Source: Candidatus Omnitrophota bacterium (GTDB lineage: Bacteria > Omnitrophota > Gorgyraeia > JAHJTE01). From it: DNA of 64,000 bases. The stretch's first letter is position 1, and each line of letters begins with the position of its first letter. Where the stretch lies: contig JBFMEB010000006.1 of NCBI GenBank assembly GCA_040753675.1, positions 4,561-68,560 of the forward strand. The letters run 5' to 3'. Shown piece after piece: positions 8,776 through 37,160 of the stretch. The translations under genes and the position numbers were made by a program. The notes under the pieces are model-generated. The model had not been told where the DNA came from, did not search any database, and saw nothing but the letters and a program-made list of their open reading frames with translations.

Positions 8776-8805
8776 GACAGTAGTATTTTTGGGAGATAAA
8801 TTAAT

Positions 8806-10032: not shown

Positions 10033-10040
10033 GTGAGGAC

Positions 10041-10076: not shown

Positions 10077-10080
10077 TCCG

Positions 10081-10265: not shown

Positions 10266-10277
10266 GGAGGTGTTTTT

Positions 10278-10769: not shown

Positions 10770-10786
10770 GTTAGGTAGGATTAAAG

Positions 10787-11152: not shown

Positions 11153-11159
11153 GGTTTTT

Positions 11160-11292
11160 GTTAGATTGATTGGTAACGGTAACGAAGCCGGTATCGGTTA
11201 ACGGCTAAGGTAACGTAAAAACAAAAAGACGAATTCCGTAACCGAATAACGAAACGGGCATCGTAACCCTAACCTATAAACGTTGCCAAAGT
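11160..11292. repeat. 'gtaacg/cgttac' degenerate repeat cluster, palindromic in organisation
   Basis: ggtaacggtaacgaagccggtatcggttaacggctaaggtaacg ... ccgtaaccgaataacgaaacgggcatcgtaaccctaacc. Confidence 0.7.
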
Positions 11293-11304
11293 GGTTTTAA
11301 ATAT

Positions 11305-11826: not shown

Positions 11827-11957
11827 GTAAAATCAAAAATCAAATATAAAAATGCAAAATGACAATGCAAAATTTAAAATTTATAAACTTAAGTTTAAAA
11901 TAATTTTACATTTTAATATGTAATTTTGATATTTAATTTTTGATATTTAATTTTTAT
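11827..11957. repeat. AT-rich imperfect palindrome (caaaat family) centred on taaacttaagttta
   Basis: aaatcaaaaatcaaatataaaaatgcaaaatgacaatgcaaaat ... attttaatatgtaattttgatatttaatttttgatatttaattttt. Confidence 0.8.
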
Positions 11958-13419: not shown

Positions 13420-13460
13420 AGTTGATACACGGATAAACATATTCTGGGAATACTAAACAA

Positions 13461-13567
13461 AAGTCAAAAGTTGTCATACAATTGTCATACTATTGTCATA
13501 TATTGTCTATTTACAATGTATGACCATATTTGACTATTTATGACTACGTATGACTTATTACTGTCTG
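13461..13567. repeat. 'tgtcata/tatgaca' palindromic repeat element, copy A
   Basis: aagtcaaaagttgtcatacaattgtcatactattgtcata...atgtatgaccatatttgactatttatgactacgtatgacttattactgtctg. Near-identical to 39470-39572. Confidence 0.85.
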
Positions 13568-13577
13568 TTTTCTCTAA

Positions 13578-15209: not shown

Positions 15210-15739
15210 AATCTGTGCCAAGCAAGTTAGATTTAAAGACCCTCTTTGCCAAGAATAGGTTTATTTTTCTTCTTGCCTTATCAGTCCTCATTTTCATCAT
15301 ATCAATTATTTATATATGCGTTCCCCTTTTGAAAAACCTAAACGCTGTTAGTAAGCTCTATAGAAGAGAGCAGTTAGAGTTTGACCGGATTCAAAAAGAA
15401 GCCTCGCTTTTAGATAATGTAAAAGCAAAAAATTTTACTGATAGTGAGCATATTCCAGCTGCCTTGGAAGAATTAACCAGAAAGGCAAATGAGTTAGGGA
15501 TTAAATTCGATGCGGTAAAACAGAGAGGTTTAGTATTCCTCGACGGCAATTATAAAATTTTACCCCTCTCTATAGAATCAACCTGTGATTTTCAGGCATT
15601 GGGTAATTTTCTAGGCAATCTGGAAAATTTAAAGGAAAGTGTTACGGTTGTTGACAAATTAGAAATTACCAGAGAAAAAGAAATCTTGCCTAATTTAAAG
15701 GTTGTTTTAGAGTTAGGTATGTATATTATATCTTATTAA
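15194..15739 (+). CDS. PilO-like inner-membrane pilus alignment protein
   Basis: Single N-terminal TM, coiled coil, ~180 aa. Overlaps the pilM/N stop. Confidence 0.55.
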   Translation: MPNRIKSVPSKLDLKTLFAKNRFIFLLALSVLIFIISIIYICVPLLKNLNAVSKLYRREQLEFDRIQKEASLLDNVKAKNFTDSEHIPAALEELTRKANELGIKFDAVKQRGLVFLDGNYKILPLSIESTCDFQALGNFLGNLENLKESVTVVDKLEITREKEILPNLKVVLELGMYIISY

Positions 15740-15741
15740 TT

Positions 15742-16185
15742 ATGAAAAATGCTCGCCTTATAATCTTATTAGTCTTAATAATAATCATGGTTTTTGTCTG
15801 GTCAACTTCTTTTAAAAAAATCAAGCGGCCAAGAATCATGGCTAAAGGTTCAGTGGCTCTTGAGCCTGAGAAGGATGTTAAAAGTTTTGTTTTTTGGCAG
15901 GATAGGATGGTTAAAGGGAGGAAGGTAAGTGCTTTTAAGCAATGGGGAAGAAATCCCTTTGCCTTAACCCAAGGGATGATTGCCGAGTCAAGCTTTCGTC
16001 TTTTGGGCATATTATGGGACATCAAAATTCCTCAGGCAATTATTAACGATACTGTAGTTGGCGTCGGCGATGTTATCGATGGTTACAATGTTGTTGGGAT
16101 TGAAAAGAATAAAGTGATATTAAATAATGGCACTAACACCTTAGAGTTAATCTTGTGGGAAGAGAAAGATGAAGGACAGAAATGA
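15742..16185 (+). CDS. PilP-like small protein
   Basis: N-terminal TM. C-terminal beta segment (VGVGDVIDGYNVVGIEKNKVILNNGTNTLEL) resembles the PilP/GspC-like domain. Position fits the operon. Confidence 0.4.
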   Translation: MKNARLIILLVLIIIMVFVWSTSFKKIKRPRIMAKGSVALEPEKDVKSFVFWQDRMVKGRKVSAFKQWGRNPFALTQGMIAESSFRLLGILWDIKIPQAIINDTVVGVGDVIDGYNVVGIEKNKVILNNGTNTLELILWEEKDEGQK

Positions 16186-16190
16186 TTAAA

Positions 16191-16283
16191 CGCAGATGAT
16201 CGCTGACAAATGAACAGATGATCACTGATTTTTAATTTTTATCTGTGTTCATCTGTCGCTTTTCAATCTGTGTTCATCTGTGT
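16191..16283. repeat. 'cagatga/catctgt' palindromic repeat element
   Basis: cgcagatgatcgctgacaaatgaacagatgatcactga ... atctgtgttcatctgtcgcttttcaatctgtgttcatctgtgtaca. The motif acgcagatgatcactgatg recurs at 39439-39460. Confidence 0.75.
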
Positions 16284-16297
16284 ACAAGGAGATTTTA

Positions 16298-18001
16298 ATG
16301 ACAGAAGAACGGAAAAATTTAGAGAAAATACTTTTAGAAGATAAACTCATTTCTCCAGAGAGGTTAAATCTTGCAAAAGAGGAAGCAAAAAAGAATGCAG
16401 TCTCTTTAGAGAAGATATTGATTAAGCAGGGAGTGGTAAATAATGAACAGATAGCTACGATTATTGCTGGTGAAATGGGTATACCTTTTATTGATGTATC
16501 GGATTATGCTATTGATAAAGAGGTTTTGAAGCTTATCCCCAAAGATTTGGCGAGCAAATATACCCTTATCCCGCTGTTTAAAGTCGGCAGCAGCCTGACC
16601 ATAGCTATGGCAGATCCCTCGGATATAGTTGCCATAGATGAGGTTCATTTAAAAAGTAAATGTGATATTGATGCAGTCTTAGGAATTGCCGGCGCGATTA
16701 CTAATGCCATTGATACTTATTACGGGGTTAAGGGCGATATAGAGCATATTGTCGAAGATATTAGCGAGGAAGATGTTAATAAAATGGTAGAGAAACTTAA
16801 AGAGTCGCAAGATACCAAAGATTCTTCTCAGTTAGCCGAGGAGGCGCCATTAATCCGCCTAGTGAATCTTTTGATTGTTCAGGCCGTAAAAGAAAGGGCA
16901 TCTGATATTCATATTGAGCCGGATGATAAACAATTGAGGGTGCGTTTCCGCATTGATGGCGTTCTTTATGAGAGACCTTCACCGCCTCAATTTTTGACAA
17001 ACGGAATTATATCTCGTGTAAAGATTCTTTCCAAAATGGATATTGCTGAAAAAAGAAAGCCGCAGGACGGAGGATTCGGTATTAAGGTCGGTAAAAAAGA
17101 TATAGATTTAAGAGTCTCAACTTATCCGACAATTTATGGCGAAAATGTGGTGATGAGACTTTTGGATAAAAGTAGCCTATTAATGGGCTTGGAAGATTTA
17201 GGGCTTTCTGACCAGGCCCTTAAAACCTTTAGCGAAATGATTCGCATGCCTTATGGCATAATTCTGGTAACTGGGCCGACAGGAAGCGGTAAAACCACTA
17301 CATTATACGCAACTTTACAGACAATAAATACTGTTTCAAAAAACATAATCACCTTGGAGGATCCAGTTGAATATAGGTTACCTCTAATAAGGCAGGCACA
17401 GGTTAACCCTAAAGCAGGCCTTACCTTTGCCTCTGGCTTAAGGTCAATATTAAGACAGGACCCCAATGTTATCATGGTTGGCGAAATCCGAGATTTAGAG
17501 ACAGTGGAGATTGCTGTGCATGCTGCTTTGACTGGCCAGTTGGTTTTCAGCACCTTGCATACCAACGATGCTCCTGGAGCAATAACCAGAATGATAGATA
17601 TGGGCGTAGAGCCATTTTTAATTGCCTCATCAGTTATTGGTGTAGTAGCCCAGCGGCTTGTTAGAGTATTATGCCCTGACTGTAAAGAAGCCTATAAACC
17701 TTCAGAGCAATTATTATCTAGTTTAGGTTTAGCGCCGGGTAAGGATTATAAGTTTTTTAAGGCACGTAGTTGTCGGCATTGTTATCAGATGGGCTATAAA
17801 GGCAGAATTGGAATCTATGAAGTTATGGTTATGAACGAAGCTCTTAGGAAACTTGCAATCAGTAAGGCATCCAGCGATGAAGTTATGCGCGAGGCGAGAA
17901 AATCAGGACTCGTAAGTTTGAGAGAAGACGGATTGCTTAAGGCGATAAATGGTATAACATCTATCGAAGAGGTTCTAAGAGTAACGCAGATGGAAGTGTG
18001 A
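16298..18001 (+). CDS. pilB: Second PilB/GspE/MshE-family assembly ATPase. ATG 16298, with AAGGAG 6 nt upstream
   Basis: GPTGSGKTTT Walker A. CPDCKEAY...CRHCYQMGY tetracysteine. MshEN-like N-terminal repeats (LEKILLEDKLISPERLNLA; SLEKILIKQGVVNNEQI). Confidence 0.9.
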   Translation: MTEERKNLEKILLEDKLISPERLNLAKEEAKKNAVSLEKILIKQGVVNNEQIATIIAGEMGIPFIDVSDYAIDKEVLKLIPKDLASKYTLIPLFKVGSSLTIAMADPSDIVAIDEVHLKSKCDIDAVLGIAGAITNAIDTYYGVKGDIEHIVEDISEEDVNKMVEKLKESQDTKDSSQLAEEAPLIRLVNLLIVQAVKERASDIHIEPDDKQLRVRFRIDGVLYERPSPPQFLTNGIISRVKILSKMDIAEKRKPQDGGFGIKVGKKDIDLRVSTYPTIYGENVVMRLLDKSSLLMGLEDLGLSDQALKTFSEMIRMPYGIILVTGPTGSGKTTTLYATLQTINTVSKNIITLEDPVEYRLPLIRQAQVNPKAGLTFASGLRSILRQDPNVIMVGEIRDLETVEIAVHAALTGQLVFSTLHTNDAPGAITRMIDMGVEPFLIASSVIGVVAQRLVRVLCPDCKEAYKPSEQLLSSLGLAPGKDYKFFKARSCRHCYQMGYKGRIGIYEVMVMNEALRKLAISKASSDEVMREARKSGLVSLREDGLLKAINGITSIEEVLRVTQMEV

Positions 18002-18040
18002 TATAAAGATAAATTTAAATATCAAAAATCAAATATCAAA

Positions 18041-18421
18041 ATGGCAATACAAAATTCAAAATCTGATGACTTTAAAGAGAAATTTAAACAAAGACTATAT
18101 GATTTTGTATTAAAGCTTATCAATTTTTTAGATAGTTTAGCTAAAGATAATGTTTCAAGAAGAATTAGTGACCAATTGTTAAGGAGCGGAACAAGTATTC
18201 TTGGGAATTATATTGAAGGTAAATCAGCAAGCAGTAAAAAAGAGTTTACTAATTTTTTTAATACTTCCTTGAAGTCGGCTAATGAAAGCAAATTATGGCT
18301 TACATTATTGCGTGATGCTAAACGAGCTAATACTGAAGAAGTAACTTGGTTTCTGAAAGAACTCGATGAGATTTCTAATATTTTTGCATCAAGCATTTTG
18401 ACACTTAAAGGTAAAAAGTAA
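18041..18421 (+). CDS. Four-helix-bundle protein (TIGR02436 / '23S rRNA intervening sequence protein' family)
   Basis: DQLLRSGTSILGNYIEGKSASSKKEFTNFFNTSLKSANESKLWLTLL matches the family core. The gene sits between pilB2 and pilC2 inside a caaaat/attttg palindrome (18002-18040 and 18422-18482). Confidence 0.75.
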   Translation: MAIQNSKSDDFKEKFKQRLYDFVLKLINFLDSLAKDNVSRRISDQLLRSGTSILGNYIEGKSASSKKEFTNFFNTSLKSANESKLWLTLLRDAKRANTEEVTWFLKELDEISNIFASSILTLKGKK

Positions 18422-18482
18422 TTTTTAATTTTAATATGTAATTTTGATTTTTGCAGTTTGATTTTTGAATTAGTTTTATATT

Positions 18483-19694
18483 ATGCCAAATTTCAGATAT
18501 AAGGTAAGAGACAGGGTGGGTAAACCTATTCTCGGCGTTATCGGAGCTAAGAATACAGAAATGCTCATTGAGTATTTTAAAAGTATGGGCTATACGCCGA
18601 TAACTGTCAGAGAACAGAGAGGCATAGGTATTTTAGAGTTCAGAAGGAAATTAAAAAAAATTACTTTAAAAGATATAAATATGATGACTCGCCAACTGGC
18701 TACTTTTGAAGGCGCGGGTATGCCGATACTTTCTGGGCTTAAAGCATTAGAGGATCAGACAGAGAATTGGCGGCTAAAAGAGATAGTGACAAAGATAAAG
18801 AAAGACGTGGAGGCAGGCAGCGAACTATCTGATGCCTTAGAACAGTTTCCAAATGTATTTTCAAATTTATATGTTAATATGGCCCGGGCTGGTGAGACAG
18901 CAGGAAAGCTTCATGAGATACTACTGCGGCTTGCAGAATTAGGCGAGAGGGATGCCAATACCCAAGCCCAGATAAAATCAGCTACACGTTATCCCTTGAT
19001 TGTAATTATTGTCATTTGTGCTGTTTTTTTAGGCATAACTACTTTTATCCTGCCAAAATTTGCCAATCTTTTTGAGAGATTTAATACAGAATTGCCTTTG
19101 CCTACTCGAGTGATGCTAGGAATTAATACAGCATTCCATAGATACTGGTATATCCTTTTGATTGCAGTTATTGCTGTTATAGTCGGGTTTCGGTTTTTTG
19201 TAAGAAGCAAAGGAGGACGCAAGATTTGGGATGCCTTTGTATTAAATATGCCCATTTTTGGCAAACTAATTCAAGATGTAATTATGGCTAGGTTTTCTCG
19301 CATTATGGGCACGCTTCTTCAAAGTGGCCTGCCAGTCTTAAAAGCCCTGGATATAACCAGTGGCGTCCTTGATAATGTTATTGTAGCCAAGGCATTAGAT
19401 GATGTTAAAGATAATGTTAGAGAGGGAAGAGGTATGTCGCAGCCACTTGCTTTACATAAGGTTTTTCCGCCGATGGTAGTGCATATGGTTGCAGCAGGTG
19501 AAGAAAGCGGAGCGCTTGATTCTCTACTGGTTAAGATTGCTGAGCATTTTGATGCTGAGGTGGAAAGTGCAATAAAAAATTTGACTACCTTGATTGAACC
19601 AATACTTATATTTATTTTGGGTATTATCGTCCTTGGGTTAGCCTTGGCGATATTCTTGCCAATGTGGAATATGTCCAGATTGTTCTTGAAATAA
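18483..19694 (+). CDS. pilC: Second PilC/GspF platform protein
   Basis: Two T2SSF repeats, three TMs. Confidence 0.9.
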   Translation: MPNFRYKVRDRVGKPILGVIGAKNTEMLIEYFKSMGYTPITVREQRGIGILEFRRKLKKITLKDINMMTRQLATFEGAGMPILSGLKALEDQTENWRLKEIVTKIKKDVEAGSELSDALEQFPNVFSNLYVNMARAGETAGKLHEILLRLAELGERDANTQAQIKSATRYPLIVIIVICAVFLGITTFILPKFANLFERFNTELPLPTRVMLGINTAFHRYWYILLIAVIAVIVGFRFFVRSKGGRKIWDAFVLNMPIFGKLIQDVIMARFSRIMGTLLQSGLPVLKALDITSGVLDNVIVAKALDDVKDNVREGRGMSQPLALHKVFPPMVVHMVAAGEESGALDSLLVKIAEHFDAEVESAIKNLTTLIEPILIFILGIIVLGLALAIFLPMWNMSRLFLK

Positions 19695-19718
19695 AACTGC
19701 AAACTGCAGAAAAGTTCT

Positions 19719-19754
19719 TGACAATTATATATGTAAATGTTATTTTAATTAAAG
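19719..19754 (+). promoter_or_regulatory. Candidate promoter (TTGACA-17-TATTTT) upstream of pilin 19779
   Basis: Perfect -35 read directly. The -10 is weak. Confidence 0.3.
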
Positions 19755-19778
19755 ATAAACTTTGGGGGGAGGTGAGGT

Positions 19779-20162
19779 ATGTTGAAGAGATTAAGAGGTT
19801 TTACGTTAATCGAATTAGTTATTGTTTTAGCAATATTAGCAATATTAGCCGCTGTGGCAATTCCCAGATTCGTGGACTTATCTAAGAAGGCAAGAAGAGC
19901 AACTGCTGAGTCAGAATTAGGTTCTTTGCGCGCCGCAGCACAACTTTATTATGCTTCTGTGGCCCTGAGCGGAAACCCAAGCTTTCCTACTAGTGAAGCA
20001 GCGTTAAGAGCCAGGCTCGACCAAGATATAACGCAATTGGATACAAATACTACTGCAAGAAGCTTTGACTGGGTTTACTATGGAACCGGAACTTCTGCTG
20101 GTAGAGTAGCTAAGACAGGCCCATATACTGCTGGAGGTGCAGGCGCAGGCTGGAACTGGTAG
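19779..20162 (+). CDS. Type IV pilin (prepilin-type), likely the major subunit of module 2
   Basis: MLKRLRG|FTLIELVIVLAILAILAAVAIPRF. 127 aa. Confidence 0.85.
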   Translation: MLKRLRGFTLIELVIVLAILAILAAVAIPRFVDLSKKARRATAESELGSLRAAAQLYYASVALSGNPSFPTSEAALRARLDQDITQLDTNTTARSFDWVYYGTGTSAGRVAKTGPYTAGGAGAGWNW

Positions 20163-26703: not shown

Positions 26704-27075
26704 ATGCAGAGTTATAAAGATTTAGAAGTATATAAAATTTCGCATAAGTTAGCAATCGAAATTCATAAAATGACATTGGAATTACCTTATTTTGAAATGT
26801 ATGAGGAAGGCAGTCAAATAAGAAAATCTGCTAAAGCGATTCCAGCAAATATTGTTGAGGGATTTGGAAGGAAGAAATATCAGCAAGATTACTTGCGTTT
26901 TGTTATTATTGCTCATGCTTCCTGTAATGAGACAATAGAACATTTAGAAATTTTATTTGAAACAGGTTCTTTAAAAGATAGGGATAAATTCAATTATTTT
27001 CTAAAACAATATGATATCCTTGGCAGAAAACTTAATAAATTTATCCAAGCAATCGAAAAACAGCTGGAAATCTAA
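26704..27075 (+). CDS. Four-helix-bundle protein (23S rRNA IVS protein family), canonical member
   Basis: YKDLEVYKISHKLAIEIHKMT...IRKSAKAIPANIVEGFGRKKYQQDYLRFVIIAHASCNETIEHL is the classic family pattern. Confidence 0.85.
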   Translation: MQSYKDLEVYKISHKLAIEIHKMTLELPYFEMYEEGSQIRKSAKAIPANIVEGFGRKKYQQDYLRFVIIAHASCNETIEHLEILFETGSLKDRDKFNYFLKQYDILGRKLNKFIQAIEKQLEI

Positions 27076-27116: not shown

Positions 27117-27145
27117 TTGACTTTTTCTTTTTGCTATGATAAATT
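27117..27145 (+). promoter_or_regulatory. Candidate promoter TTGACT-17-TAAATT upstream of the histidine-kinase operon
   Basis: Read directly. Confidence 0.3.
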
Positions 27146-27188: not shown

Positions 27189-28901
27189 ATGGCAAAGACT
27201 AAACGAAAAATTAAAGATAGGGCGACATGGCTTCTTACTCTTTATGAGATTGCCAGAGAAGTAAATTCTAATTTAGGTCTTAAGCATTGTCTTAATTCTA
27301 TTATTGATAACACAGTAAAACTTCTTAATGTGGAGAGAGCTTCTTTAATGCTCTTTGATAAGCAGAGAAAAGAATTGAAGATAGAGTCGGCAGTTGGCAT
27401 CAGCGCACAGATTATAAGAAAGGCAAGGGTTAAAGTAGGAGAAGGTGTTTCCGGCTGGGTAATGAAGACAGGAAAGGCACTTTTACTTAATGATATATCT
27501 AAAGATAGAAGATTTCGCCCAAGAGAAAAGGGGAGATATTACAATCAGTCGCTTTTAAGCGTGCCTTTAAAAGCGCGTGGAGAGGTAATCGGGGTCCTTA
27601 ATGTTAATAATAAACGCCGGAAGCAAGTATTTACCAGAGATGATTTAGAACTTCTAAGCGCCTTGGCTAATGAGGCTTCCATCGCTGTATATAATGCACG
27701 GCTTTATCAGCAATTGTTGAGCGTCAATGAACGCCTAAAAGAGTTAGATAGATTAAAGTCTGATTTTGTTTCGAATGTTTCTCACGAATTAGGCACCCCA
27801 TTAGCTACTTGCAGATACTTTACCTCTCTAATGCTAAAAGAATCAGCAGGACCGGTGAGCCAACAGCAAAGAGAATATCTGCAACTCATGGATTCTAATA
27901 TCGAGCGCCTGACTCGGTTGATAAATAATTTGCTTTCTCTTTCTCGGATTGAAGCTGGCAGGTTTGAGTTAAGACGCTCTATGGTAAATGTGGCAAATTT
28001 AAGCAAAGAGGTTTTGCGGACATTTGAAGGGCAGCTTAGCGAAAAACAAATAAACATTGAAGATAAGATTCCCCAGAATGTCCCGGAAGTCTATGCTGAT
28101 TCTGAAAGAATAATTGAAGTTTTTACTAATTTAATTGGCAATGCTATTAAATTTAGCCCTAAGAACAGCGTAATTTCATTAAACGCCGCAACTATTACTA
28201 AAGAATTGTCAGCTGGAGGAGAGAGGAGATATTTACTGTCTAGCGTATCAGATACAGGAAAAGGTATTGCTGCCTCTGACTTAGATAAGATTTTCAATAA
28301 ATTCGAACAATTAAAAACTGACTTACCCCAACGAGAAAGGGGCACTGGTTTGGGCTTAGCCATTTGTAAAGAAATCGTTAAATTGCATAAAGGTGATATT
28401 TGGGCAGAATCGGAATTAGGTAAAGGCAGTACCTTTTTCTTTGCTCTTCCTATATACAACGAGGAAGAATATTTCTTAGAGCGGATTTTAGACGAAATAA
28501 AGCGGTCACGAATTAACCGTAGCCCGGTATCATTAGTTGTTTTAGCTATTAAGAATTTCCCAGACACTAAAGCTGGTTTGTCAGCCGATGAGCTTTTAAG
28601 TTTATTATTTGATTTGGAGACTATTGCCAAGAAAACCGTGCGTCGGCCTAATGATATAGTGATAAGATTTAAAAAAGGCGAGATACTAGCCATCTTAGCT
28701 GATACTCACAAAGAAGGTGCCTATGCTTTGGGCGGCCGCGTAAGAGATATGCTTCAGAACTATGAATTTAAAAGTTCTCGAGGACCGATAAAATTACATT
28801 TTGAAATTGGCATAGTAACTTACCCTGATGATGCGCCTAATGAATTAGAGTTATTGCGTCAAGTGGATAAGATATTGGAAGAAAAAGGAGTCAGACGGTG
28901 A
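27189..28901 (+). CDS. Sensor histidine kinase: GAF, HisKA, HATPase_c and a C-terminal degenerate GGDEF domain
   Basis: GAF (aa ~20-170). H-box VSHELGTPL. G-boxes. The C-terminal ~140 aa align to the GGDEF C-terminal half, with GGDEF replaced by FKKGE but an RxxD (RPND) at the I-site position. Confidence 0.8.
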   Translation: MAKTKRKIKDRATWLLTLYEIAREVNSNLGLKHCLNSIIDNTVKLLNVERASLMLFDKQRKELKIESAVGISAQIIRKARVKVGEGVSGWVMKTGKALLLNDISKDRRFRPREKGRYYNQSLLSVPLKARGEVIGVLNVNNKRRKQVFTRDDLELLSALANEASIAVYNARLYQQLLSVNERLKELDRLKSDFVSNVSHELGTPLATCRYFTSLMLKESAGPVSQQQREYLQLMDSNIERLTRLINNLLSLSRIEAGRFELRRSMVNVANLSKEVLRTFEGQLSEKQINIEDKIPQNVPEVYADSERIIEVFTNLIGNAIKFSPKNSVISLNAATITKELSAGGERRYLLSSVSDTGKGIAASDLDKIFNKFEQLKTDLPQRERGTGLGLAICKEIVKLHKGDIWAESELGKGSTFFFALPIYNEEEYFLERILDEIKRSRINRSPVSLVVLAIKNFPDTKAGLSADELLSLLFDLETIAKKTVRRPNDIVIRFKKGEILAILADTHKEGAYALGGRVRDMLQNYEFKSSRGPIKLHFEIGIVTYPDDAPNELELLRQVDKILEEKGVRR

Positions 28902-29287
28902 AGGCAGAAGCTGGAGGCTCAATAAAAAAGAGGATTCTTGTTGTTGACGACGAGCCAGACTTTCTCATGGCCATTAAGGCAATGTTAGAGGCTAATAATT
29001 TTACTGTTTTGACTGCGGTTGACGGCCAGGAAGGGTTGAATTTAGCAAGGCGAGAAAAGCCTGATTTGATTGTTTTGGATTTAATGCTTCCCAAGATGGA
29101 TGGATACAAGGTATGTAGGTTCCTTAAATTTGATGAAAAATATCAAAAGATTCCAATAATTATGCTTACTGCCCGGGGCCAGGAAGAAGATAAACAACTA
29201 GGAAAGGAGATGGGCGCTGACTTCTATATTGTTAAATCAGAGAGGCCGGAGGTTTTATTGGATAAAATTAAGGAATTTCTTAAATAG
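28898..29287 (+). CDS. Single-domain response regulator (CheY-like receiver)
   Basis: ILVVDDEPDF...DLIVLDLMLPKMDG...T...K receiver hallmarks. Confidence 0.85.
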   Translation: MKAEAGGSIKKRILVVDDEPDFLMAIKAMLEANNFTVLTAVDGQEGLNLARREKPDLIVLDLMLPKMDGYKVCRFLKFDEKYQKIPIIMLTARGQEEDKQLGKEMGADFYIVKSERPEVLLDKIKEFLK

Positions 29288-29289: not shown

Positions 29290-30924
29290 ATGGAGAAAAC
29301 CAGCAAAATATTAATCGGGATAGATATAGGAGAATATTCTATTAAAGCTGTAAAGATAGAAAAGACAGCTTCGGGATTGCGGATTCTAGATTTTATTACC
29401 AAAGATGAAATCTCTAAAAATGCACAAGGCGAAATCGACCCCGCTGTTATAAAGGATATTTTAAATAAGTTCTCAATTGAGGGGGCGCAGATTTGTTCTG
29501 TTATTTCTGGAGGAGACATAGTAGTTAAGCACGCTATTGTGCCATTTATGCCCAAGGAGGAATTAAAAGACGCAGTGCGTTGGTCTTTGAAGGAAGTAGT
29601 AAATTTCAACTTAGAGGAAAGCAAAGTCGACTTTCAGATACAAGATGCTATTACCGGCACAGATGGCATAAAGCGCAACGAGGTCTTAGCTGTAGCAGTT
29701 AACAATGCGGTTATTGATAAAAATGTAAAATTACTCCAAGCAGCCGGCATAGAGCCATACTTAATTACTACGAGCCATTTTGCCTTAGCAAATTTGGTTG
29801 CGCATAACGAACGAATAATGCAAGGTAAAACCAATGTCTTGATTGACATCGGGTTTAAGAAAACTACCATCTTAATTTTTAGAGGCACAAAATTAGAATT
29901 TATCCGACAGATTTCTTCCGCAGGAGATAGTTTTACCAAGGCTTTAAGCGGCGTGGTGGTTACATTTCCCAAACGAATAGAATTGGATTTTAAAAAAGCG
30001 CAAGAGTTAATAAGACAATGCGGCATTCCTTCTAAATTTGAAGCGAATGCTAACGTCCAAGATGTTCCGTTGTCTCAAATATCTGTATTAATGCGGCCGG
30101 TTTTGGAGCGTTTTCTCACTGATGTGCGGGGCTCTTTTAAATATTTTAGGGAAGAATTCCAAGTTGAGTCAATAGATCAGATTTTTTTATCAGGTTCCGG
30201 TGCGATGTTAAAGAATTTAGTTGAATTTGTAAAGGATGGTTTGGGAGGTATACCTACTCAGTTAATTCCCATGCCTGAGCGGTTAGGCTTCCAGGTAGAT
30301 AAAGATAAGTTGTTACCCCTTCTGCCTGCATTGTCAGTGAGTATAGGAGCATGTTTAGGAGAGGATAATGTTATAAATTTAGTTCCTAAGTCGGTAAAGA
30401 TGCAGAAATCTATAAGTGTCCAGCAAAGAATATTAAGTTTTGCTGGTATTATACTTCTTATAATTGTACCTTTTACTTTCATATCATTAATACTAAAGTT
30501 GAACCGTTATAAAAGGATTCTCATATCCTATAATGACTATTATAGTAATCTGGTTAAATTACGCACCTTGAGGGATAATATTGTCGAACGCCAGAAGTTT
30601 TTCAATGAAATTATCGGTCGGGAACAAAATCTTTTCTTATATTTGAAAGAATTGAGCCGCATCGTGCCCAGTGCAATTGAGTTTAGGCATCTTGAATATG
30701 ATAAAACCCAAGAGATATTTTTAATACAAGGCTTAGCTTATAGCGCTGAAATTTCTTCTGAGAAATCTTTATCTAATTTTCTGCTTGACTTAGAAAATTC
30801 TCCTTATTTTAGTGATGTAAATCTGATTTCTAGCAAAAAAACTAGTACCGATCAGATAGAAATCGTAGATTTTGTATTAAGTGTTAAATTAACCAAAGTT
30901 AACCCCGTTAGAGATTACAAGTAA
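29290..30924 (+). CDS. pilM: Second PilM-PilN fusion protein
   Basis: ILIGIDIGEYSIKAVKIE actin-like N-terminus. C-terminal TM (ILSFAGIILLIIVPFTFISLIL) plus a PilN-like tail. Paralogous to 13578-15209. Confidence 0.75.
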   Translation: MEKTSKILIGIDIGEYSIKAVKIEKTASGLRILDFITKDEISKNAQGEIDPAVIKDILNKFSIEGAQICSVISGGDIVVKHAIVPFMPKEELKDAVRWSLKEVVNFNLEESKVDFQIQDAITGTDGIKRNEVLAVAVNNAVIDKNVKLLQAAGIEPYLITTSHFALANLVAHNERIMQGKTNVLIDIGFKKTTILIFRGTKLEFIRQISSAGDSFTKALSGVVVTFPKRIELDFKKAQELIRQCGIPSKFEANANVQDVPLSQISVLMRPVLERFLTDVRGSFKYFREEFQVESIDQIFLSGSGAMLKNLVEFVKDGLGGIPTQLIPMPERLGFQVDKDKLLPLLPALSVSIGACLGEDNVINLVPKSVKMQKSISVQQRILSFAGIILLIIVPFTFISLILKLNRYKRILISYNDYYSNLVKLRTLRDNIVERQKFFNEIIGREQNLFLYLKELSRIVPSAIEFRHLEYDKTQEIFLIQGLAYSAEISSEKSLSNFLLDLENSPYFSDVNLISSKKTSTDQIEIVDFVLSVKLTKVNPVRDYK

Positions 30925-31184
30925 TGTTCTACACCTATGTTCTTAGAAGCAAAAAGGATAAAAAGCAATATACCGGCACTACTTCTAACTTACGGAAACG
31001 CTTCAAGGAGCATAATGATAACAAGGTAACCTCTACCAAAGGCAGAGGCCCTTTTGAACTAATATATTTTGAATTCTGCTTAAACAAACACGATGCCTTT
31101 GCTAGGGAAAGATTTCTAAAAAGTGGCATGGGTAAACGTTACTTAAAAAACAGATTGAAGCGTTTCCTATCTCTAACGGGGTAA
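30924..31184 (+). CDS. GIY-YIG nuclease-superfamily small protein (UPF0213/YhbQ-like)
   Basis: FYTYVLRS...KQYTGTTSNLRKRFKEHN is the GIY-YIG motif. Its start overlaps the pilM/N stop (TAATG). Confidence 0.8.
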   Translation: MFYTYVLRSKKDKKQYTGTTSNLRKRFKEHNDNKVTSTKGRGPFELIYFEFCLNKHDAFARERFLKSGMGKRYLKNRLKRFLSLTG

Positions 31185-31185
31185 A

Positions 31186-31842
31186 ATGAAACCTTTAACA
31201 TTAGACATTGATAAGCGCCAGATAATAATTTTAGTTGTGGGCGTAGCCATGCTTTTTGCCCTTATCCTCTATTGGCAATTTTTTTATGCGCCTAAAGCCG
31301 CGGAAGTTTCAGCTATATCTGTAAAGGTTAAAGATCTAGATATTAATATTAAAGAAGAGGAAGCTAAGCGTCAAGCTTTGGACTACGAAAAAGAGATAAA
31401 TAAAATCCAACAAGAAGTCTCTCGCCTTCAGGATAAATTTCCTTCCCAGAATGAGTTGCCAACTTTATTCCAGGAATTATTTAATCAAGCTGATAAATTT
31501 AAAATCGAAATTATCTCTCTTGAGCCGGATAAGCCATCCATTTATAAAACACAAGGCGAAGAAAAGACTGGTCTCATTTTTAATAAAGTTCCCTTAAAAA
31601 TACAGTTGAGGGCAAACTACAAGCCTTTAGCTGAATTCTTAAAAGCATTATATGAAAATCCGAAATTTGCTTTTAGTTTTGATGATTTAAAAATAGACAA
31701 GATTCAGAGCCGCGAGACTAAAGTTGCAAAATTAGAAATTAATTTAGTCTTAGGTGCGTTTGTCTTGTCTCACGAAGGAGCTGTATCTCTGGAAGAGGAT
31801 TTGCAAAAAACTTTTGATATGAATCTGCGGGGATTAAAGTAA
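31186..31842 (+). CDS. PilO-like protein (module 2)
   Basis: N-terminal TM plus coiled coil. Position and size as for 15194-15739. Confidence 0.55.
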   Translation: MKPLTLDIDKRQIIILVVGVAMLFALILYWQFFYAPKAAEVSAISVKVKDLDINIKEEEAKRQALDYEKEINKIQQEVSRLQDKFPSQNELPTLFQELFNQADKFKIEIISLEPDKPSIYKTQGEEKTGLIFNKVPLKIQLRANYKPLAEFLKALYENPKFAFSFDDLKIDKIQSRETKVAKLEINLVLGAFVLSHEGAVSLEEDLQKTFDMNLRGLK

Positions 31843-32402
31843 TGGATAAAGAGAAGAAAGAATTGATACTAGCACCCATACTTGTTATTATAGCCATACT
31901 ATTTGTCTTATCTACCGTAAAAAAAGTTATGCGCTCTTTTCCGCAACGCAAAGTGGGAATGCCTTCTCCGGCTGTTATAGATAAATCAAAATTACAAAAG
32001 CATACTCCTGTTCCTTTAAGCCCACCACGATTTGAAAAAGTTGTCCCCTCAGAGATAAATGCTGCGCCAGCCGAGGAAGCCAAATTTGATATTGACACTA
32101 TAGACTGGGGCAGAGACCCTTTTACTTTTGATCTGGCACTTCTTTTTAGCTCAGATAAAGATCAGGGGCACTTAGCAAAATTAGAACAACTTTCCAGGCT
32201 TAAACTCACCGGCATGATTATTTCTAAAGACAACCCGAAGGATTCAATTGCGGTAATTAACGGCGAAAACTTGAAAGTAGGAGAAATGATCTCCGGATTT
32301 ATATTGAAAGAGGTTAAGACTAATTCTGTTGTTCTGGCGTGGGATAGCGAAGAATTTACATTGATGCTATGGGAAGAAGAATCCCAAAAGAAAGAAAGGT
32401 AA
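31842..32402 (+). CDS. PilP-like protein (module 2)
   Basis: N-terminal TM. C-terminal GMIISKDNPKDSIAVINGENLKVGEMISGFILKEV resembles the C-terminus of 15742. Confidence 0.4.
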   Translation: MDKEKKELILAPILVIIAILFVLSTVKKVMRSFPQRKVGMPSPAVIDKSKLQKHTPVPLSPPRFEKVVPSEINAAPAEEAKFDIDTIDWGRDPFTFDLALLFSSDKDQGHLAKLEQLSRLKLTGMIISKDNPKDSIAVINGENLKVGEMISGFILKEVKTNSVVLAWDSEEFTLMLWEEESQKKER

Positions 32403-33103
32403 ATAAGCCTGCCATAATTAGCCCCGAGACACTACGAGCTATTTCTAAGATAAGCGAAGCTATTATCTCTGATTTGTATCTGGAAGATATACTGCGTTTA
32501 ATTGTGACGGTCAGCGCGAGAATAATGAATTCAAAGATTTGTTCATTGATGTTATTAGATCCTCAAAAAAATGAGTTGGTAATTCGTGCCACTCAATCGG
32601 TTAGTCCCTTGTATAACAAAAAGCCGAATTTAAAAGTTGGTGTCGGCGTTGCTGGTTTAGTAGCTAAAGAAAACAAGCCGATGATTATCAGTGATGTTAA
32701 AACAGATCCGCGTTATTTAAATAGAGAAATTGCCAAAAAAGAAAATTTATGTTCCCTCTTAAGCGTGCCCTTAAGAGTTAAAGGCAAGGTCATCGGTGTT
32801 TTTAATTTATACACCTCTAAGCCACATAAATTCAGCGATGCTGAAGTTAAGGTTTTAACCAGCGTGGCTAATCAGGCAGCGATTGCTATTGAGCACGCTA
32901 GACTTATGGTAGAGACTGATGTAATTAAAGAGGAATTGGCAACGCGAAAAGCAGTAGAGCGGGCAAAGGGACTACTTATGCGCCAGGAAGGCTTAGATGA
33001 AGAAGGTGCCTTCAGAAAGATTCAGAAGACAAGTATGGATACACGCAGGTCGATGCGTGAAATAGCCGAAGCAATTATTTTAACAAGCCAAATGAAGAAA
33101 TAG
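32369..33103 (+). CDS. GAF-ANTAR RNA-binding antiterminator-like regulator
   Basis: GAF domain (aa ~25-175). C-terminal ANTAR (ELATRKAVERAKGLLMRQEGLDEEGAFRKIQKTSMDTRRSMREIAEAII). Confidence 0.8.
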   Translation: MGRRIPKERKVNKPAIISPETLRAISKISEAIISDLYLEDILRLIVTVSARIMNSKICSLMLLDPQKNELVIRATQSVSPLYNKKPNLKVGVGVAGLVAKENKPMIISDVKTDPRYLNREIAKKENLCSLLSVPLRVKGKVIGVFNLYTSKPHKFSDAEVKVLTSVANQAAIAIEHARLMVETDVIKEELATRKAVERAKGLLMRQEGLDEEGAFRKIQKTSMDTRRSMREIAEAIILTSQMKK

Positions 33104-33137
33104 CCCCTTCTGTTAGGAATTAAAATCTTTCCTGCTG

Positions 33138-35420
33138 ATGGTCAAAAATAATATTTATTCAGAAACAGTTAAGCTTCTTGGGCTTACCGTCAAGAAGGTC
33201 TCCCTTTATTCGCGAAACCATCCCATCGTAACAGCATCAATGAATCAGCTATTCCAACATTTACAACAGATACTTTCTGAAATTTCTCAGGTTACAATTT
33301 CCACCAAAGGAGAAGAGATATTTTTTAATGACACCTCTTTGCTGCGCAAAGAATTAGGAACACAAGAATTAATTGAAAAATTAAAACAATTCCGCATAGA
33401 TAGTATTTCTTTTAGTCCTGGCTTAGAATTGAAAGAATTGGAACATCTGATTCTTGTTTTAAGTAGCGGCAAGAAAATAGACGAAAACCAACAGCAACTC
33501 AAAGATAATTTTTTCAGCAAAGGTTTTGCTCATATACGTGCCAATCTTATTCGCTACGAAAAAGTAACCGAAGGACAAAGAGTGGTAGCGAAAGACGCTA
33601 TCTTAGAGGCAGAAAGTTTTATAAAAAAGGAAGCCCAAGAGCCAGATAAACCGGGAGAAATAATTCTTAGCGATTTTCTTAGTGGAAAAGTATTAGATCT
33701 GCCTTTAGAGAAATATCAACAGGACATTTTATCAAAATTTATAAATAATCCTGCGAGTTTTGCCCAGCCAATTTTACAAGCAGCAGTTTCCCGTGGAAAC
33801 TTAGGTGAGATTTTAGATAAATTTAAGGAATTCATTTTAGATGCGTTAACAAATGAACTTTGCGCTAAAAAAAGAAAACCAGAAAGATTAGTTTCTTCTT
33901 TTGAAAAAAGTATCGCTTCTGGCTTAACTGAGCCACAGATAGCTGAAAAACTCAAAATAAAAAAAGACGAATTAACCGAAATTTTCTCAAAATTTAACGA
34001 TGAACTAAAACTTCATATGTTGATTAAGTACTTCCAGGATAGTAGGCCTAATAATGATAAATTTATAGAGCGCTCGAGTAAATTGCTAACTGACAACGAA
34101 GAATTGAATAGATTAAAAGATAAATTGAAACAAGCGTTATTGGATGGCGGCTTGACAGATGTTGATAGCGATGCCTTGCTTGGACAGATTGATAATACCT
34201 TGGTGAAAGAGGAAAAAATTACCATCTCAAAGATAGAATATGAGCATTTGAAAAATAAGGCAGAAATTTTTGATAAGACATTGCTGGAAAGGGTAAAACA
34301 GGTAACCCTGGAGCTGGAAAAGAAAACTAAGCGCCTAGGGGATGAGAAAGAGCGGGTGGATACTGTAATCCGCAATCTCGCCGAGGGCCTAATTGTGGTT
34401 GATAAAGATGGCAAAGTGGTGATGATTAATCCCGCCGCTGAGCAATTATTAGGAATTTCCAAAGAGAATAAGATAGGCAAACATATACTAGAAGATATCA
34501 GTAGCCATCAACTTGTGGCTTTAACAAGGGGAAATTTAGCTGACGAAGGTGGGCAAGTCAGCAAAGAAATAGAGCTTAAAAGTAAAGACGAGAAGACCCA
34601 GAAGATATTGCGGGCAAGCACGGCAGTGGTAGAGAATGAAGACGGTAATACGGTAGGTATGGTTATGGTTTTAAGTGACATTACTCGACAGAAACAAGTA
34701 GAAAAAATGAAGTCAGACTTTTTCTCACATATGAGCCACGAATTACGTACCCCCATTATTGCGGCACAAAAGTCTATCTCGCTTTTGCTAACTCAGACAG
34801 CAGGAAATATTAATGATGACCAGAATAAATTTTTAGGTATTGCCAATTCTAACCTCGTTCGGTTATCGCGATTAATTGACAATATACTGGATATGTCAAA
34901 AATTGAAGCTGGCAAGCTAAAGATTAATTCCATTAAATTCGATATTGCTGAGCTTATTAGAGATATCACCAATTCTCTTTCTAGTTGGGCTACTGATAAG
35001 CATATCCAGCTGGTTGCTGATGTGCCTGGTAAAGCAATCGAGATTGAGGCAGATAAAGAGCGGATTAGCCAGGTTCTGACGAATTTTATAGGTAATGCAC
35101 TTAAATTTACACCTCAGGAAGGCAAAATCACAGTTTCAGGTAAGGAACTAGTTAAAGATGATATAGAATCAATCCAGGTTAGCGTAACAGATAGTGGCAT
35201 CGGCATTGAAAAAAATGACCTGGAGAGAATATTTAATAAGTTTGAACAAGTAAGCCTATCATCTCCCATAGGAGTAAGTGGAACCGGTTTAGGATTATAT
35301 ATATGTAAAGAAATTATCCAATTACATAATGGCAAGGTTTGGGCTGAAAGTGAAGTCGGGAAAGGCAGTGCTTTTAGCTTTATTATTCCAAAGAAATTCG
35401 TAAATGAAGCCACAACTTAG
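33138..35420 (+). CDS. Large PAS-domain sensor histidine kinase
   Basis: ~400-aa N-terminal helical region. PAS (NLAEGLIVVDKDGKVVMINPAAEQLLGI). HisKA (MSHELRTPI). HATPase_c (GTGLGLYICKEII). Confidence 0.85.
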   Translation: MVKNNIYSETVKLLGLTVKKVSLYSRNHPIVTASMNQLFQHLQQILSEISQVTISTKGEEIFFNDTSLLRKELGTQELIEKLKQFRIDSISFSPGLELKELEHLILVLSSGKKIDENQQQLKDNFFSKGFAHIRANLIRYEKVTEGQRVVAKDAILEAESFIKKEAQEPDKPGEIILSDFLSGKVLDLPLEKYQQDILSKFINNPASFAQPILQAAVSRGNLGEILDKFKEFILDALTNELCAKKRKPERLVSSFEKSIASGLTEPQIAEKLKIKKDELTEIFSKFNDELKLHMLIKYFQDSRPNNDKFIERSSKLLTDNEELNRLKDKLKQALLDGGLTDVDSDALLGQIDNTLVKEEKITISKIEYEHLKNKAEIFDKTLLERVKQVTLELEKKTKRLGDEKERVDTVIRNLAEGLIVVDKDGKVVMINPAAEQLLGISKENKIGKHILEDISSHQLVALTRGNLADEGGQVSKEIELKSKDEKTQKILRASTAVVENEDGNTVGMVMVLSDITRQKQVEKMKSDFFSHMSHELRTPIIAAQKSISLLLTQTAGNINDDQNKFLGIANSNLVRLSRLIDNILDMSKIEAGKLKINSIKFDIAELIRDITNSLSSWATDKHIQLVADVPGKAIEIEADKERISQVLTNFIGNALKFTPQEGKITVSGKELVKDDIESIQVSVTDSGIGIEKNDLERIFNKFEQVSLSSPIGVSGTGLGLYICKEIIQLHNGKVWAESEVGKGSAFSFIIPKKFVNEATT

Positions 35421-35437
35421 CGAGCAAGCTAAAGTTC

Positions 35438-35457
35438 CCTGCCTGCCGGCAGGCAGG
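35438..35457. repeat. GC-rich 20-bp perfect palindrome cctgcctgccggcaggcagg, copy 1 of 2
   Basis: Also at 45877-45896 (19/20). Both copies lie immediately 3' of a gene stop in an AT-rich genome. Possible terminator hairpin or protein site. Confidence 0.8.
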
Positions 35458-35491
35458 TGTAAGTTATCTGCTCATTGAAGGAGGTCAATCA

Positions 35492-35920
35492 ATGGATAAA
35501 AAAACACCAAATGCAAATAGCGACATAGACATACTACTTATTGATGATGAGAAAGATTTTGTTTCAACAATGGAATTTTGGCTTAAAGGTCAAGGCTACA
35601 AAGTTCAGACTGTCTTTAATGGCCAAGATGCTTTAAAAATAATAAAGGTGCAGGCTCCACATATTGTTTTTCTCGATATAAATATGCCGGTTATGGACGG
35701 TATTGAGACCTTAAAAAGGATTCGGCAGATTGATAGCGAGCTACCGGTAGTTATGATTACTGCCCATGATACTGACGAGAACAGAAAGGAGGCTTATAAA
35801 TTGAAAGCCAATGCCTTTTTTGATAAGTCAAAAGACTTCTATGAAGCAGACCATATTATAAAATCAATATTGCATTTTTTTGCTAAGGGCAAAAAAGACA
35901 ACAATAAAAAGGGCAATTGA
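35492..35920 (+). CDS. Single-domain response regulator (CheY-like) with a basic C-terminal tail
   Basis: ILLIDDEKDF...HIVFLDINMPVMDG...T..K. Confidence 0.85.
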   Translation: MDKKTPNANSDIDILLIDDEKDFVSTMEFWLKGQGYKVQTVFNGQDALKIIKVQAPHIVFLDINMPVMDGIETLKRIRQIDSELPVVMITAHDTDENRKEAYKLKANAFFDKSKDFYEADHIIKSILHFFAKGKKDNNKKGN

Positions 35921-35942: not shown

Positions 35943-37160
35943 ATGCCAGAGCTGAAAGATAAAAAAATACTACTCGCCTCAAGCGATACAAATTGCGCTG
36001 AGATAATTATTTTATTGCTTAAAAGCTGGGGTTATGCTTCGTCTTGGATAAAAGAATCCAAGGAGGTAATTGAGGCTATCTCAAAATTGCAACCAGACTT
36101 AATTATAGTTGATTCTAGTTTAGGCGGGACAGATCCCTTTAATCTTATCAAAGAAATAAAGGCAGATTACCACAATGGTCATATACCTATACTAATGATA
36201 TTAGAAAAGAAGAATGTGCGCCGAGATATTTTAGAGATTGAACAAGGCCTGGATGATTACCTGACCAAGCCGCCTGATCCTATTGATTTAGAGGTGCGTC
36301 TGGAAATGGCGCTTCGTAGAACCGAGCATCATTTTTTTGCTAACGCCCTGTCAAAGTTACCTGGCAGCCGGATGTTAGAAAAAATTATCCAGCAAAAACT
36401 TGAGCATAAAGAAATATTTTCATTTCTTTACTGCGATATAAATAATTTTAAATCCTTCAACGATAAATACGGTTTTGAGCGCGGCGATGCAGTTATAATG
36501 CAGACGGCACATATTATTACTAATGCAGTGAAGCTATTCGGTAGCACAAATGATTTCGTCTTTCACATTGGAGGAGATGATTTCGTCATACTTACCTCAA
36601 GTGTATCTGAGGCAGCAGTAACTAAATATATAATTGATGAATTTGATAAGTTGATTCTTTTTCATTATGCCCCTATAGATAGGGACAGAGGTTTTATAAG
36701 GATTAGAGATAGGCAAGGAAAGATTGTCAATTTTCCCCTAATGGCTATATCTATTGCAATTGTGAATAATGTAGATAGACAGATTAATAGTTTGATTGAA
36801 TTTGTTGAGATAGCCTTTGAAATTAAACGCTATCTAAAACAAGACAAGCATAGTTCTAGTCTGGTTAATAGAAGAAAAGCGAGATACGATTACGAGATTA
36901 AGAAAGAAGACGAATTAAAACAGGAAGCCAGAGTCAGTAGCCTTAAAAAAAGACAGATATATAGGCCTCTTGGCCAAATACTCCTAGAGAAAAACTTAAT
37001 AAATAATCAACAATTGGAAAGCGCTCTTATTAAACACTGGAGTTCTAACCGTCGTCTGGGGCAGGTGTTAGTGGATATGAATCTTATTGATTCTAAACAG
37101 TTAGAGCAAATCTTTAAAAAGAGCCCTAAACATTCGCAAGCCCACTATGTTGGAGCATAA
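35943..37160 (+). CDS. Receiver, GGDEF (GGDDF variant) and C-terminal MshEN-like c-di-GMP-binding module
   Basis: REC (DLIIVDSSLGG). GGDEF core YCDINNFKSFNDKYGFERGD...FHIGGDDFVIL. C-terminal tandem 24-aa motifs PLGQILLEKNLINNQQLESALIKH and RLGQVLVDMNLIDSKQLEQIFKK fit RLGxxLLxxGLIxxxxLxxxLxxQ. Confidence 0.75.
   Translation: MPELKDKKILLASSDTNCAEIIILLLKSWGYASSWIKESKEVIEAISKLQPDLIIVDSSLGGTDPFNLIKEIKADYHNGHIPILMILEKKNVRRDILEIEQGLDDYLTKPPDPIDLEVRLEMALRRTEHHFFANALSKLPGSRMLEKIIQQKLEHKEIFSFLYCDINNFKSFNDKYGFERGDAVIMQTAHIITNAVKLFGSTNDFVFHIGGDDFVILTSSVSEAAVTKYIIDEFDKLILFHYAPIDRDRGFIRIRDRQGKIVNFPLMAISIAIVNNVDRQINSLIEFVEIAFEIKRYLKQDKHSSSLVNRRKARYDYEIKKEDELKQEARVSSLKKRQIYRPLGQILLEKNLINNQQLESALIKHWSSNRRLGQVLVDMNLIDSKQLEQIFKKSPKHSQAHYVGA

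Follow-up and report, generated by a model that had tools for sequence, protein, structure and literature searches.

Among the described receptors of cyclic di-GMP (c-di-GMP) that carry a catalytically dead GGDEF domain is SgmT of Myxococcus xanthus, a protein with the order GAF-kinase-receiver-dead GGDEF which binds c-di-GMP through its inhibitory site, or I-site (Petters et al. 2012; PMC3509222). Its landmarks are the motif R763HPD, an active site (A-site) that begins at G772, and a second c-di-GMP-site arginine, R794 (PMC3509222). PopA of Caulobacter crescentus, as cited in the same paper, is a c-di-GMP receptor whose dead GGDEF domain keeps its RxxD, and in CckA of the same organism c-di-GMP sets the balance of kinase and phosphatase by non-covalent cross-linking of domains (Dubey et al. 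2016, as cited in PMC12564702). The subject here is a sensor histidine kinase gene at nucleotides 27189-28901 of a 64,000-nucleotide stretch of Candidatus Omnitrophota contig JBFMEB010000006.1 (positions 4,561 to 68,560, forward strand), the whole of which is called the window below. The closest characterised system to this kinase is SgmT. It is probable, in our judgement, that the gene specifies a histidine kinase of a pilus operon whose retained I-site provides it with a second input, the sensing of c-di-GMP. Its features, in nucleotides of the window and residues (aa) of the product, are:

27189-28901, plus strand: sensor histidine kinase gene, complete, 570 aa, cytoplasmic, with the order GAF-HisKA-HATPase_c-degenerate GGDEF (open reading frame and Pfam)
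27285-27689, plus strand: GAF sensor domain, aa 33-167 (Pfam GAF, GAF_2 and GAF_3; E-value 2e-20)
27756-27959, plus strand: HisKA domain, the dimerisation and histidine phosphotransfer (DHp) domain, aa 190-257 (Pfam HisKA, 69 bits)
27783-27785, plus strand: phospho-acceptor H199, in the H-box VSHELGTP, which includes an ExxT motif (E200, T203)
28098-28454, plus strand: HATPase_c, the catalytic and ATP-binding (CA) domain, aa 304-422 (Pfam, 91 bits)
28461-28883, plus strand: degenerate GGDEF domain, aa 425-565 (Pfam GGDEF, matches among PDB sequences, AlphaFold2, Foldseek)
28545-28547, plus strand: A453, at the position of the metal-binding aspartate
28641-28655, plus strand: I-site loop R485-R486-P-N-D489 (RxxD being R486..D489), in register with RRPAD of 5euh and R763HPD of SgmT
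28671-28685, plus strand: remnant of the catalytic A-site, K495-K-G-E-I499, reading KKGEI where GG(D/E)EF is expected (alignments, coordinates checked)
28737-28739, plus strand: second I-site arginine, R517, 22 residues past the first A-site position, as is R794 from G772 in SgmT

An earlier reading of this DNA from its letters (the sequence-only reading) had placed the open reading frame (ORF) exactly, and every peptide that it quoted was found. The 570 amino acid product is 100% identical to an NCBI protein of a Candidatus Omnitrophota metagenome-assembled genome. In its full-length AlphaFold2 (AF2) model, which has a predicted local distance difference test (pLDDT) score of 81.9, a helix (150-218) runs unbroken out of the GAF domain and becomes DHp helix 1, on which H199 lies. 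Conservation was assessed in 34 full-length relatives, diverging to 41% identity, and in 37 distinct tails. Among the relatives H199 is invariant, E200 and T203 are at least 90% conserved, and the N, G1 and G2 boxes (N314/N318, D355xG357xG359 and G385xG387LG389) are invariant or nearly so; the H-box histidine and the three boxes that mark a HisKA-family kinase are therefore all present. The ExxT motif is associated with phosphatase activity. No curated NCBIfam kinase family reached its cut-off against this protein. It is a soluble, probably bifunctional histidine kinase of the HisKA type.

The C-terminal tail matches the Pfam GGDEF profile (PF00990) over residues 427-565 (E-value 1.3e-11; 45 bits against a curated cut-off of 23.8). 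It covers profile positions 13-153 of 161, and all that is missing is the DxLT hairpin at the N-terminal end and the far C-terminal end. The sequence-only reading had recognised about 140 amino acids of GGDEF type; it was right on the identity of the domain and wrong in assigning them to the C-terminal half. The significant phmmer matches of the kinase among PDB sequences were exclusively to GGDEF domains, including 6d9m (E-value 3.8e-10) and 5euh (E-value 4.4e-5). In the latter alignment RRPNDIVIRFKKGEI of the kinase tail is paired with RRPADLVARYGGEEF of 5euh, and this register is reproduced by 6d9m, 6zxm and 3ign. For residues 419-570, modelled in AF2 with 28 family tails, the mean pLDDT is 88.7 and the predicted template-modelling score (pTM) 0.83. 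When the tail model was compared with the PDB using Foldseek, all of the top 50 matches were to GGDEF domains, among them the c-di-GMP-bound domain 3ign (template-modelling score (TM) 0.80, root-mean-square deviation 1.9 Å), PleD (TM about 0.80) and, with the highest score, the GGDEF domain of FimX (0.83). The tail thus folds as a GGDEF domain, as the sequence-only reading had expected. In the full-length model the last strand of the CA domain (413-421) is followed by GGDEF helix alpha0 from residue 425, so that the junction between the two domains consists of three residues, IYN (422-424).

The catalytic motifs of this domain have been lost. The KKGE sequence lies on the beta2-beta3 hairpin of the AF2 model, between strands 490-494 and 499-504. 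The earlier statement that GG(D/E)EF had been replaced was correct, the replacement in register being KKGEI and not FKKGE, an offset of one residue. In the DxDxFKxxND...GD motif AIKNFP stands for DIDHFK, with P458 at the position of the FK lysine, and the substrate-binding Asn, Asp and Gly-Asp positions are likewise replaced and vary within the family. All of the 37 distinct tails of the immediate family have a degenerate A-site (KKGEI, MQGEI, KQGKV, KNEGR, KSKNR and others), the A-site hairpin being among the most variable regions of the family alignment, and the C-terminal K/R pair of the GGDEF domain shows no conservation. With GG(D/E)EF, the metal-binding Asp and the substrate-binding positions all replaced, the tail cannot, on its residues, be a diguanylate cyclase, in agreement with the expectation of the sequence-only reading; the motif is missing from every relative examined.

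This loss extends well beyond the immediate family. An exhaustive HMMER search with the tail profile covered 1.84 billion representatives, and its top matches were classified. Among them were 56 with a kinase core directly upstream and 95 without a kinase, the latter mostly ordinary GGDEF/GGEEF cyclases. A sister family with the order histidine kinase (HK)-GGDEF-receiver (REC), retrieved independently, comprises at least 120 clusters, and about 35 clusters have the architecture of the present kinase in common. The GG[DE]EF motif occurs in none of the 56 kinase-fused tails and in none of 120 sister-family clusters, and the metal-binding Asp is retained in 2/56 and 0/120, respectively. The sensors ahead of the kinase-dead-GGDEF unit are PAS, GAF, Cache-HAMP-PAS or REC-PAS, and some members have a receiver after the tail. 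The layouts seen in P0095, P0110 (758 aa), P0161/P0174 and others are HK-dead GGDEF-PilZ, PAS-GAF-PAS-HK-dead GGDEF, HK-dead GGDEF-REC and Cache-HAMP-PAS-HK-dead GGDEF. The first of these, P0095 (528 aa; HisKA-HATPase-dead GGDEF-PilZ), has, besides an RxxD, a PilZ domain in which the RxxxR and DxSxxG motifs are both intact. The named members belong nearly all to the Omnitrophota, the exceptions being one contig labelled Nitrososphaera and one labelled 'bacterium'. Direct fusions of a kinase core to a dead GGDEF domain make up large families. The layout had been called uncommon, which is overstated, SgmT having the order GAF-kinase-REC-GGDEF and direct kinase-dead-GGDEF fusions being abundant in the Omnitrophota; the term holds for studied organisms but not for this phylum. 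No description of these Omnitrophota fusions was found in the literature searched. Two other searches were less productive: one with the tail-alignment profile against a word-indexed database of 5.8 billion proteins returned only two short canonical cyclases and missed the family itself, and a scan of genome contigs with the single kinase protein gave one true full-length relative (locus L006) along with 28 generic kinase-core matches.

Several of these kinases are named 'diguanylate cyclase (GGDEF)-like protein' in their source (JGI), none of them with GG(D/E)EF. These names and a Pfam GGDEF match above the cut-off are what could be said for an unorthodox motif with which the tail would still be active as a diguanylate cyclase. 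The chance of this is close to nil, given the counts of GG[DE]EF and of the metal-binding Asp in the 56 fused tails and 120 sister clusters and an A-site hairpin that varies more than most of the domain. A second reading has the A-site remnant still binding GTP, which would make of the tail a GTP sensor. Degenerate GGDEF domains with such a role exist, as in PdeA (CC3396) of Caulobacter. Here, however, Gly-Gly, the metal-binding Asp (A453), the FK lysine (P458) and the guanine-binding Asn/Asp are replaced and unconserved in the family, as is the C-terminal K/R pair, which makes GTP sensing very improbable. Both readings were rejected on this residue evidence.

The I-site has fared differently. 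Exactly five residues (IVIRF) separate R486-P-N-D489 from the A-site position K495, the same spacing that SgmT shows between R763HPD and G772. This spacing had been noted correctly in the sequence-only reading, which overlooked R517. The kinase tail thus has both marks of a receptor of the PopA/SgmT type, a degenerate A-site with an RxxD ending five residues upstream, and its R517 corresponds to the second I-site arginine on helix alpha3 (the R794 type of SgmT). Of its 150 residues only four are invariant among the 34 relatives, namely D489, V491, R517 and P546, and two of these, D489 and R517, belong to the I-site. R485 is retained in 32/34 relatives, P487 in 36 of the 37 distinct tails, and TVRRPxDxV is among the best-conserved stretches of the tail. 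R439, which our own count matches to R313 of the secondary I-site of PleD, is Lys or Arg in 29/34. R517 is retained in 54 of the 56 kinase-adjacent representatives and in 117 of the 120 sister-family clusters, versus 70 of the 95 active cyclases in the hit list, and D489 is present in 118/120 clusters of the sister family. The loop of the kinase is one residue longer than those of 6d9m, 6zxm and 3ign, and HMMER pairs their I-site arginine with R485, leaving a gap at P487. The functional arginine could therefore be R485 or R486, and the kinase has both. An I-site surface selectively kept while catalysis decayed is the pattern of proven receptors.

Several observations weigh against c-di-GMP sensing by this tail. 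R486 itself is retained in only 28/34 relatives (Gln in five, Lys in one). The strict form of RxxD is not enriched in kinase-fused tails (34/56, versus 56/95 in active cyclases), a comparison that is partly circular because the hit list was ranked by a profile containing RRPxD. In the sister family strict RxxD is found in 37/120, the arginine lying mostly one residue upstream (at -4, RxxxD), so that conservation of the motif is weaker than a single sequence makes it look; at -3 or -4 taken together an arginine is present in 101/120. D489 and R517 are common across GGDEF domains generally, and their invariance could therefore be structural. The window holds no canonical diguanylate cyclase, its sole other GGDEF-like protein having the motif GGDDF (nucleotides 35943-37160). 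Finally, c-di-GMP altered neither autophosphorylation nor phosphotransfer of SgmT in vitro, the protein being relocalised instead, and deletion of the SgmT GGDEF domain gave no phenotype (PMC3509222).

Several of these points are also what would be expected if the dead GGDEF domain bound no nucleotide and its role as a module lay in structure, dimerisation or docking (of the receiver, PilM or some other protein, for instance), its R/D/R residues stabilising the fold or a protein-protein interface. The wide conservation of D489 and R517 irrespective of an I-site, the variable strict arginine and the silent SgmT deletion all fit such a module. Set against it is the difference between catalytic residues, retained at 0-4%, and the I-site surface, retained at 82-100%, as in proven receptors (SgmT and, as cited in PMC3509222, PopA). 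Moreover, in relatives the same tail is extended by PilZ, a domain dedicated to binding c-di-GMP. We regard a tail without a ligand as somewhat unlikely, and keep c-di-GMP sensing through the I-site as the preferred reading. The interpretation offered by the sequence-only reading, of a kinase under allosteric control by c-di-GMP, is partly supported.

The output side of the kinase is defined by the genes that follow it:

28898-29287, plus strand: single-domain response regulator (receiver), 129 aa, with acidic pair D17/D18 and phospho-acceptor D61 (Pfam Response_reg, 97 bits)
29290-32402, plus strand: pilus assembly genes of the same operon (Pfam and NCBIfam matches), comprising the four entries below
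29290-30924, plus strand: PilM-PilN fusion, beginning two bases past the receiver gene
30924-31184, plus strand: ORF for a GIY-YIG nuclease, 86 aa, between pilMN and pilO and abutting both
31186-31842, plus strand: PilO
31842-32402, plus strand: T2SSB/PilP-like gene

The GTG start of the receiver gene overlaps the stop codon of the kinase gene (GTGA), and an AAGGAG Shine-Dalgarno sequence lies upstream of it. The two genes are translationally coupled and the receiver is the cognate partner of the kinase. In loci L001-L006 a receiver gene is again adjacent to or overlaps that of the kinase (homologues P0012, P0031, P0019 and P0028, and L006; 43-72% identity). In five of six distinct loci the pair is followed directly by PilM(N) and PilO or a PilO-like protein, the relatives showing this being L002/L003, L004, L005 and L006. 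The exception is L001, where an HTH gene and a second PilB-PilC-pilin set separate the receiver from PilM. PilB, PilC or pilin genes also occur upstream of the pair in L001, L002/L003 and L004; in L005 and L006 the ORFs on that side carry no annotation. Kinase and receiver together are accordingly a two-component system conserved in the pilus clusters of Omnitrophota.

Locus L006 (72% identity) also sheds light on two small genes of the operon region. There pilMN (7104-8732) continues directly into the next gene (8729-9376) with no GIY-YIG gene between them, and the GIY-YIG ORF of the window therefore looks like a small mobile insertion in the operon. Two genes for a '23S rRNA-intervening sequence protein' (PF05635) lie between operon genes on the plus strand of the window (18041-18421 and 26704-27075), the latter directly upstream of the kinase gene. 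In L006 the upstream 561-aa ORF and the kinase gene are separated by 78 bp, with no ORF of 100 aa or more in that interval, which suggests that the PF05635 copy upstream of the kinase may be an insertion.

In the mechanism that we favour, the dead GGDEF domain with its I-site surface (R485/R486, D489 and R517) would be a second, intracellular input and is predicted to bind c-di-GMP. The kinase would phosphorylate the co-translated receiver (28898-29287), which has no output domain and so would presumably regulate by protein-protein contact, its target being the downstream PilMN-PilO-PilP-like machinery for type IV pili, the putative output of the system. Binding of c-di-GMP may restrain the CA domains, either by cross-linking the tails of the two dimer subunits or by cross-linking a tail to its own kinase core, and this restraint would shift the balance of kinase and phosphatase activity in one direction or the other. 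The attachment of the GGDEF domain to the CA domain by three residues makes CA restraint the most likely effect of binding and gives a direct effect on catalysis greater plausibility than it has in SgmT. As binding alters localisation and not in vitro kinase activity in SgmT, allosteric control of the kinase by c-di-GMP is, by analogy, plausible only; binding might alternatively relocalise the kinase, as it does SgmT. A bolder version would have c-di-GMP-gated kinases across the whole phylum Omnitrophota, in which an intercalated c-di-GMP dimer cross-links the tails, freezes the CA domains and converts kinase to phosphatase, while the CheY-like receiver gates pilus assembly directly. This version we consider doubtful.

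Three further genes bear on c-di-GMP signalling at the locus:

35943-37160, plus strand: REC-GGDEF-like protein with a GGDDF motif (Pfam REC and partial GGDEF) and an MshE-type c-di-GMP-binding motif at its C-terminus
6949-8643, plus strand: PilB/GspE-type ATPase with an MshEN domain
16280-18001, plus strand: second PilB/GspE-type ATPase with an MshEN domain

The gene for the REC-GGDEF-like protein lies approximately 7 kb downstream of the kinase gene. In this protein the motif reads HIGGDDFVIL, the match covers GGDEF profile positions 6-100 only, and the domain is atypical in its second half. At its C-terminus are tandem repeats of the RLGxxLLxxxLI type, RPLGQILLEKNLI and RRLGQVLVDMNLI, which match NCBIfam NF053729 ('cyclic di-GMP-binding domain, MshE-related'), scoring 54.1 and 57.9 bits where the curated cut-off is 38. 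Two roles are conceivable for the protein, that of a cyclase able to bind the c-di-GMP it makes and that of a receptor only. The MshE-type motif indicates c-di-GMP signalling at the locus. The two PilB ATPases were rejected as local c-di-GMP receptors, their N-termini scoring 21.8 and 30.6 bits, below the same cut-off. In the second of them (16280-18001), what we take to be the RLG consensus positions read NLE and SLE. To judge from these scores, the pilus motors of the window are probably not the c-di-GMP receptors.

These findings bear as well on the idea that the I-site-like pocket binds another guanine nucleotide, whether (p)ppGpp, cGAMP or another cyclic dinucleotide. An RRPxD loop one residue longer than most canonical I-sites and the arginine at -4 in the sister family would be consistent with a changed ligand, as would the unusual GGDDF motif of the neighbouring cyclase-like protein, and (p)ppGpp-bound PleD structures (9g85, 9g86) were among the Foldseek matches. 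To our knowledge, however, all characterised I-sites composed of RxxD and a further arginine bind c-di-GMP, and both the MshE-type motif at the same locus and the PilZ domains of related kinases point to that nucleotide. A different ligand is consequently quite improbable, and c-di-GMP remains the preferred ligand of the tail.

The kinase operon stands among other pilus genes. A supercluster of the pilus or type II secretion system (T2SS) kind occupies 6949-20162, 29290-32402 and 54639-55898 of the window. It contains two PilB, two PilC, at least four N-methyl pilins, a T2SSK-like gene and a PilT-like ATPase, along with a pair of genes for PilM-PilN fusions, both with PilO behind them. Among the ORFs of the window that were scanned, none was recognisable as a secretin gene. 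The co-oriented block continues on the plus strand at 32369-35920 with a GAF-ANTAR RNA-binding antiterminator, whose ORF shares 34 nt with the end of the PilP-like gene, a PAS histidine kinase of 760 aa and another single-domain receiver. Across nucleotides 1-64000 nearly all long ORFs, and all those with a Pfam match, are on the plus strand. The GC skew is above zero in every 2-kb bin of the window, and the cumulative skew climbs steadily. An Rfam scan of the whole window revealed no family at its gathering score. Within the kinase gene the ORF list includes two antisense frames:

28091-28693, minus strand: ORF of 200 aa
27782-28057, minus strand: ORF of 91 aa

Both are presumed shadow ORFs of the plus-strand kinase gene, which is itself well supported. 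Promoter-like and terminator-like matches near the kinase gene were no commoner than in shuffled sequence, and TTGACT-17-TAAATT at 27117-27145 is a promoter candidate only.

If c-di-GMP binding by the tail is confirmed, the kinase would join SgmT as a second known type of histidine kinase that senses this messenger with a dead GGDEF domain, and no earlier one has that domain fixed rigidly to the catalytic domain. A direct allosteric effect on phosphorylation, which could not be demonstrated in SgmT, is both plausible and testable with this arrangement. Since hundreds of Omnitrophota proteins, with many kinds of sensor domain, are built to this design, it may be a general coupling of second-messenger and two-component signalling in an uncultured and poorly understood phylum. 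Should the doubtful phylum-wide gating also hold, it would amount to a modular, transferable second-messenger control for any two-component system. The conserved place of the pair in pilus operons suggests how Omnitrophota cells regulate the numerous pilus genes that surround it. In addition, given the lack of GG(D/E)EF in proteins named 'diguanylate cyclase (GGDEF)-like', counting such kinases as cyclases would overstate the capacity of these genomes for c-di-GMP synthesis.

A comparison with known systems places the kinase closest to SgmT. The spacings of R763, D766, G772 and R794 in SgmT (offsets 3, 6 and 22) are those of R486, D489, K495 and R517 here, and SgmT is likewise cytoplasmic and tied functionally to type IV pilus-dependent behaviour. 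In SgmT, however, a receiver sits between the kinase and the GGDEF domain, whereas the GGDEF domain of the present kinase begins three residues past the CA domain. SgmT is an orphan whose partner is the DNA-binding regulator DigR, while the kinase described here is paired with a co-translated single-domain receiver in a pilus operon, and the two proteins come from different phyla. The kinase resembles SgmT on paper and is not its orthologue, having no internal receiver, another partner and another phylum. PopA likewise has a catalytically dead GGDEF domain with RxxD, but it is a response regulator, its output being the polar sequestration of a proteolysis adaptor, whereas the present protein is a kinase. 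For CckA, a c-di-GMP cross-linking switch like that proposed by analogy here is described in the literature cited above. In CckA the nucleotide is bound by the CA and DHp domains themselves, and the kinase is without a GGDEF domain. Cyclases of the PleD and WspR type share the fold (TM about 0.8), and in them the same I-site residues immobilise domains through c-di-GMP cross-linking. They are active enzymes with GG(D/E)EF intact, while the tail described here has lost every catalytic residue and is fused to a kinase. What was known already is the dead-GGDEF I-site design of SgmT; what appears to be new is the Omnitrophota variant, in which the GGDEF domain sits directly on the CA domain.

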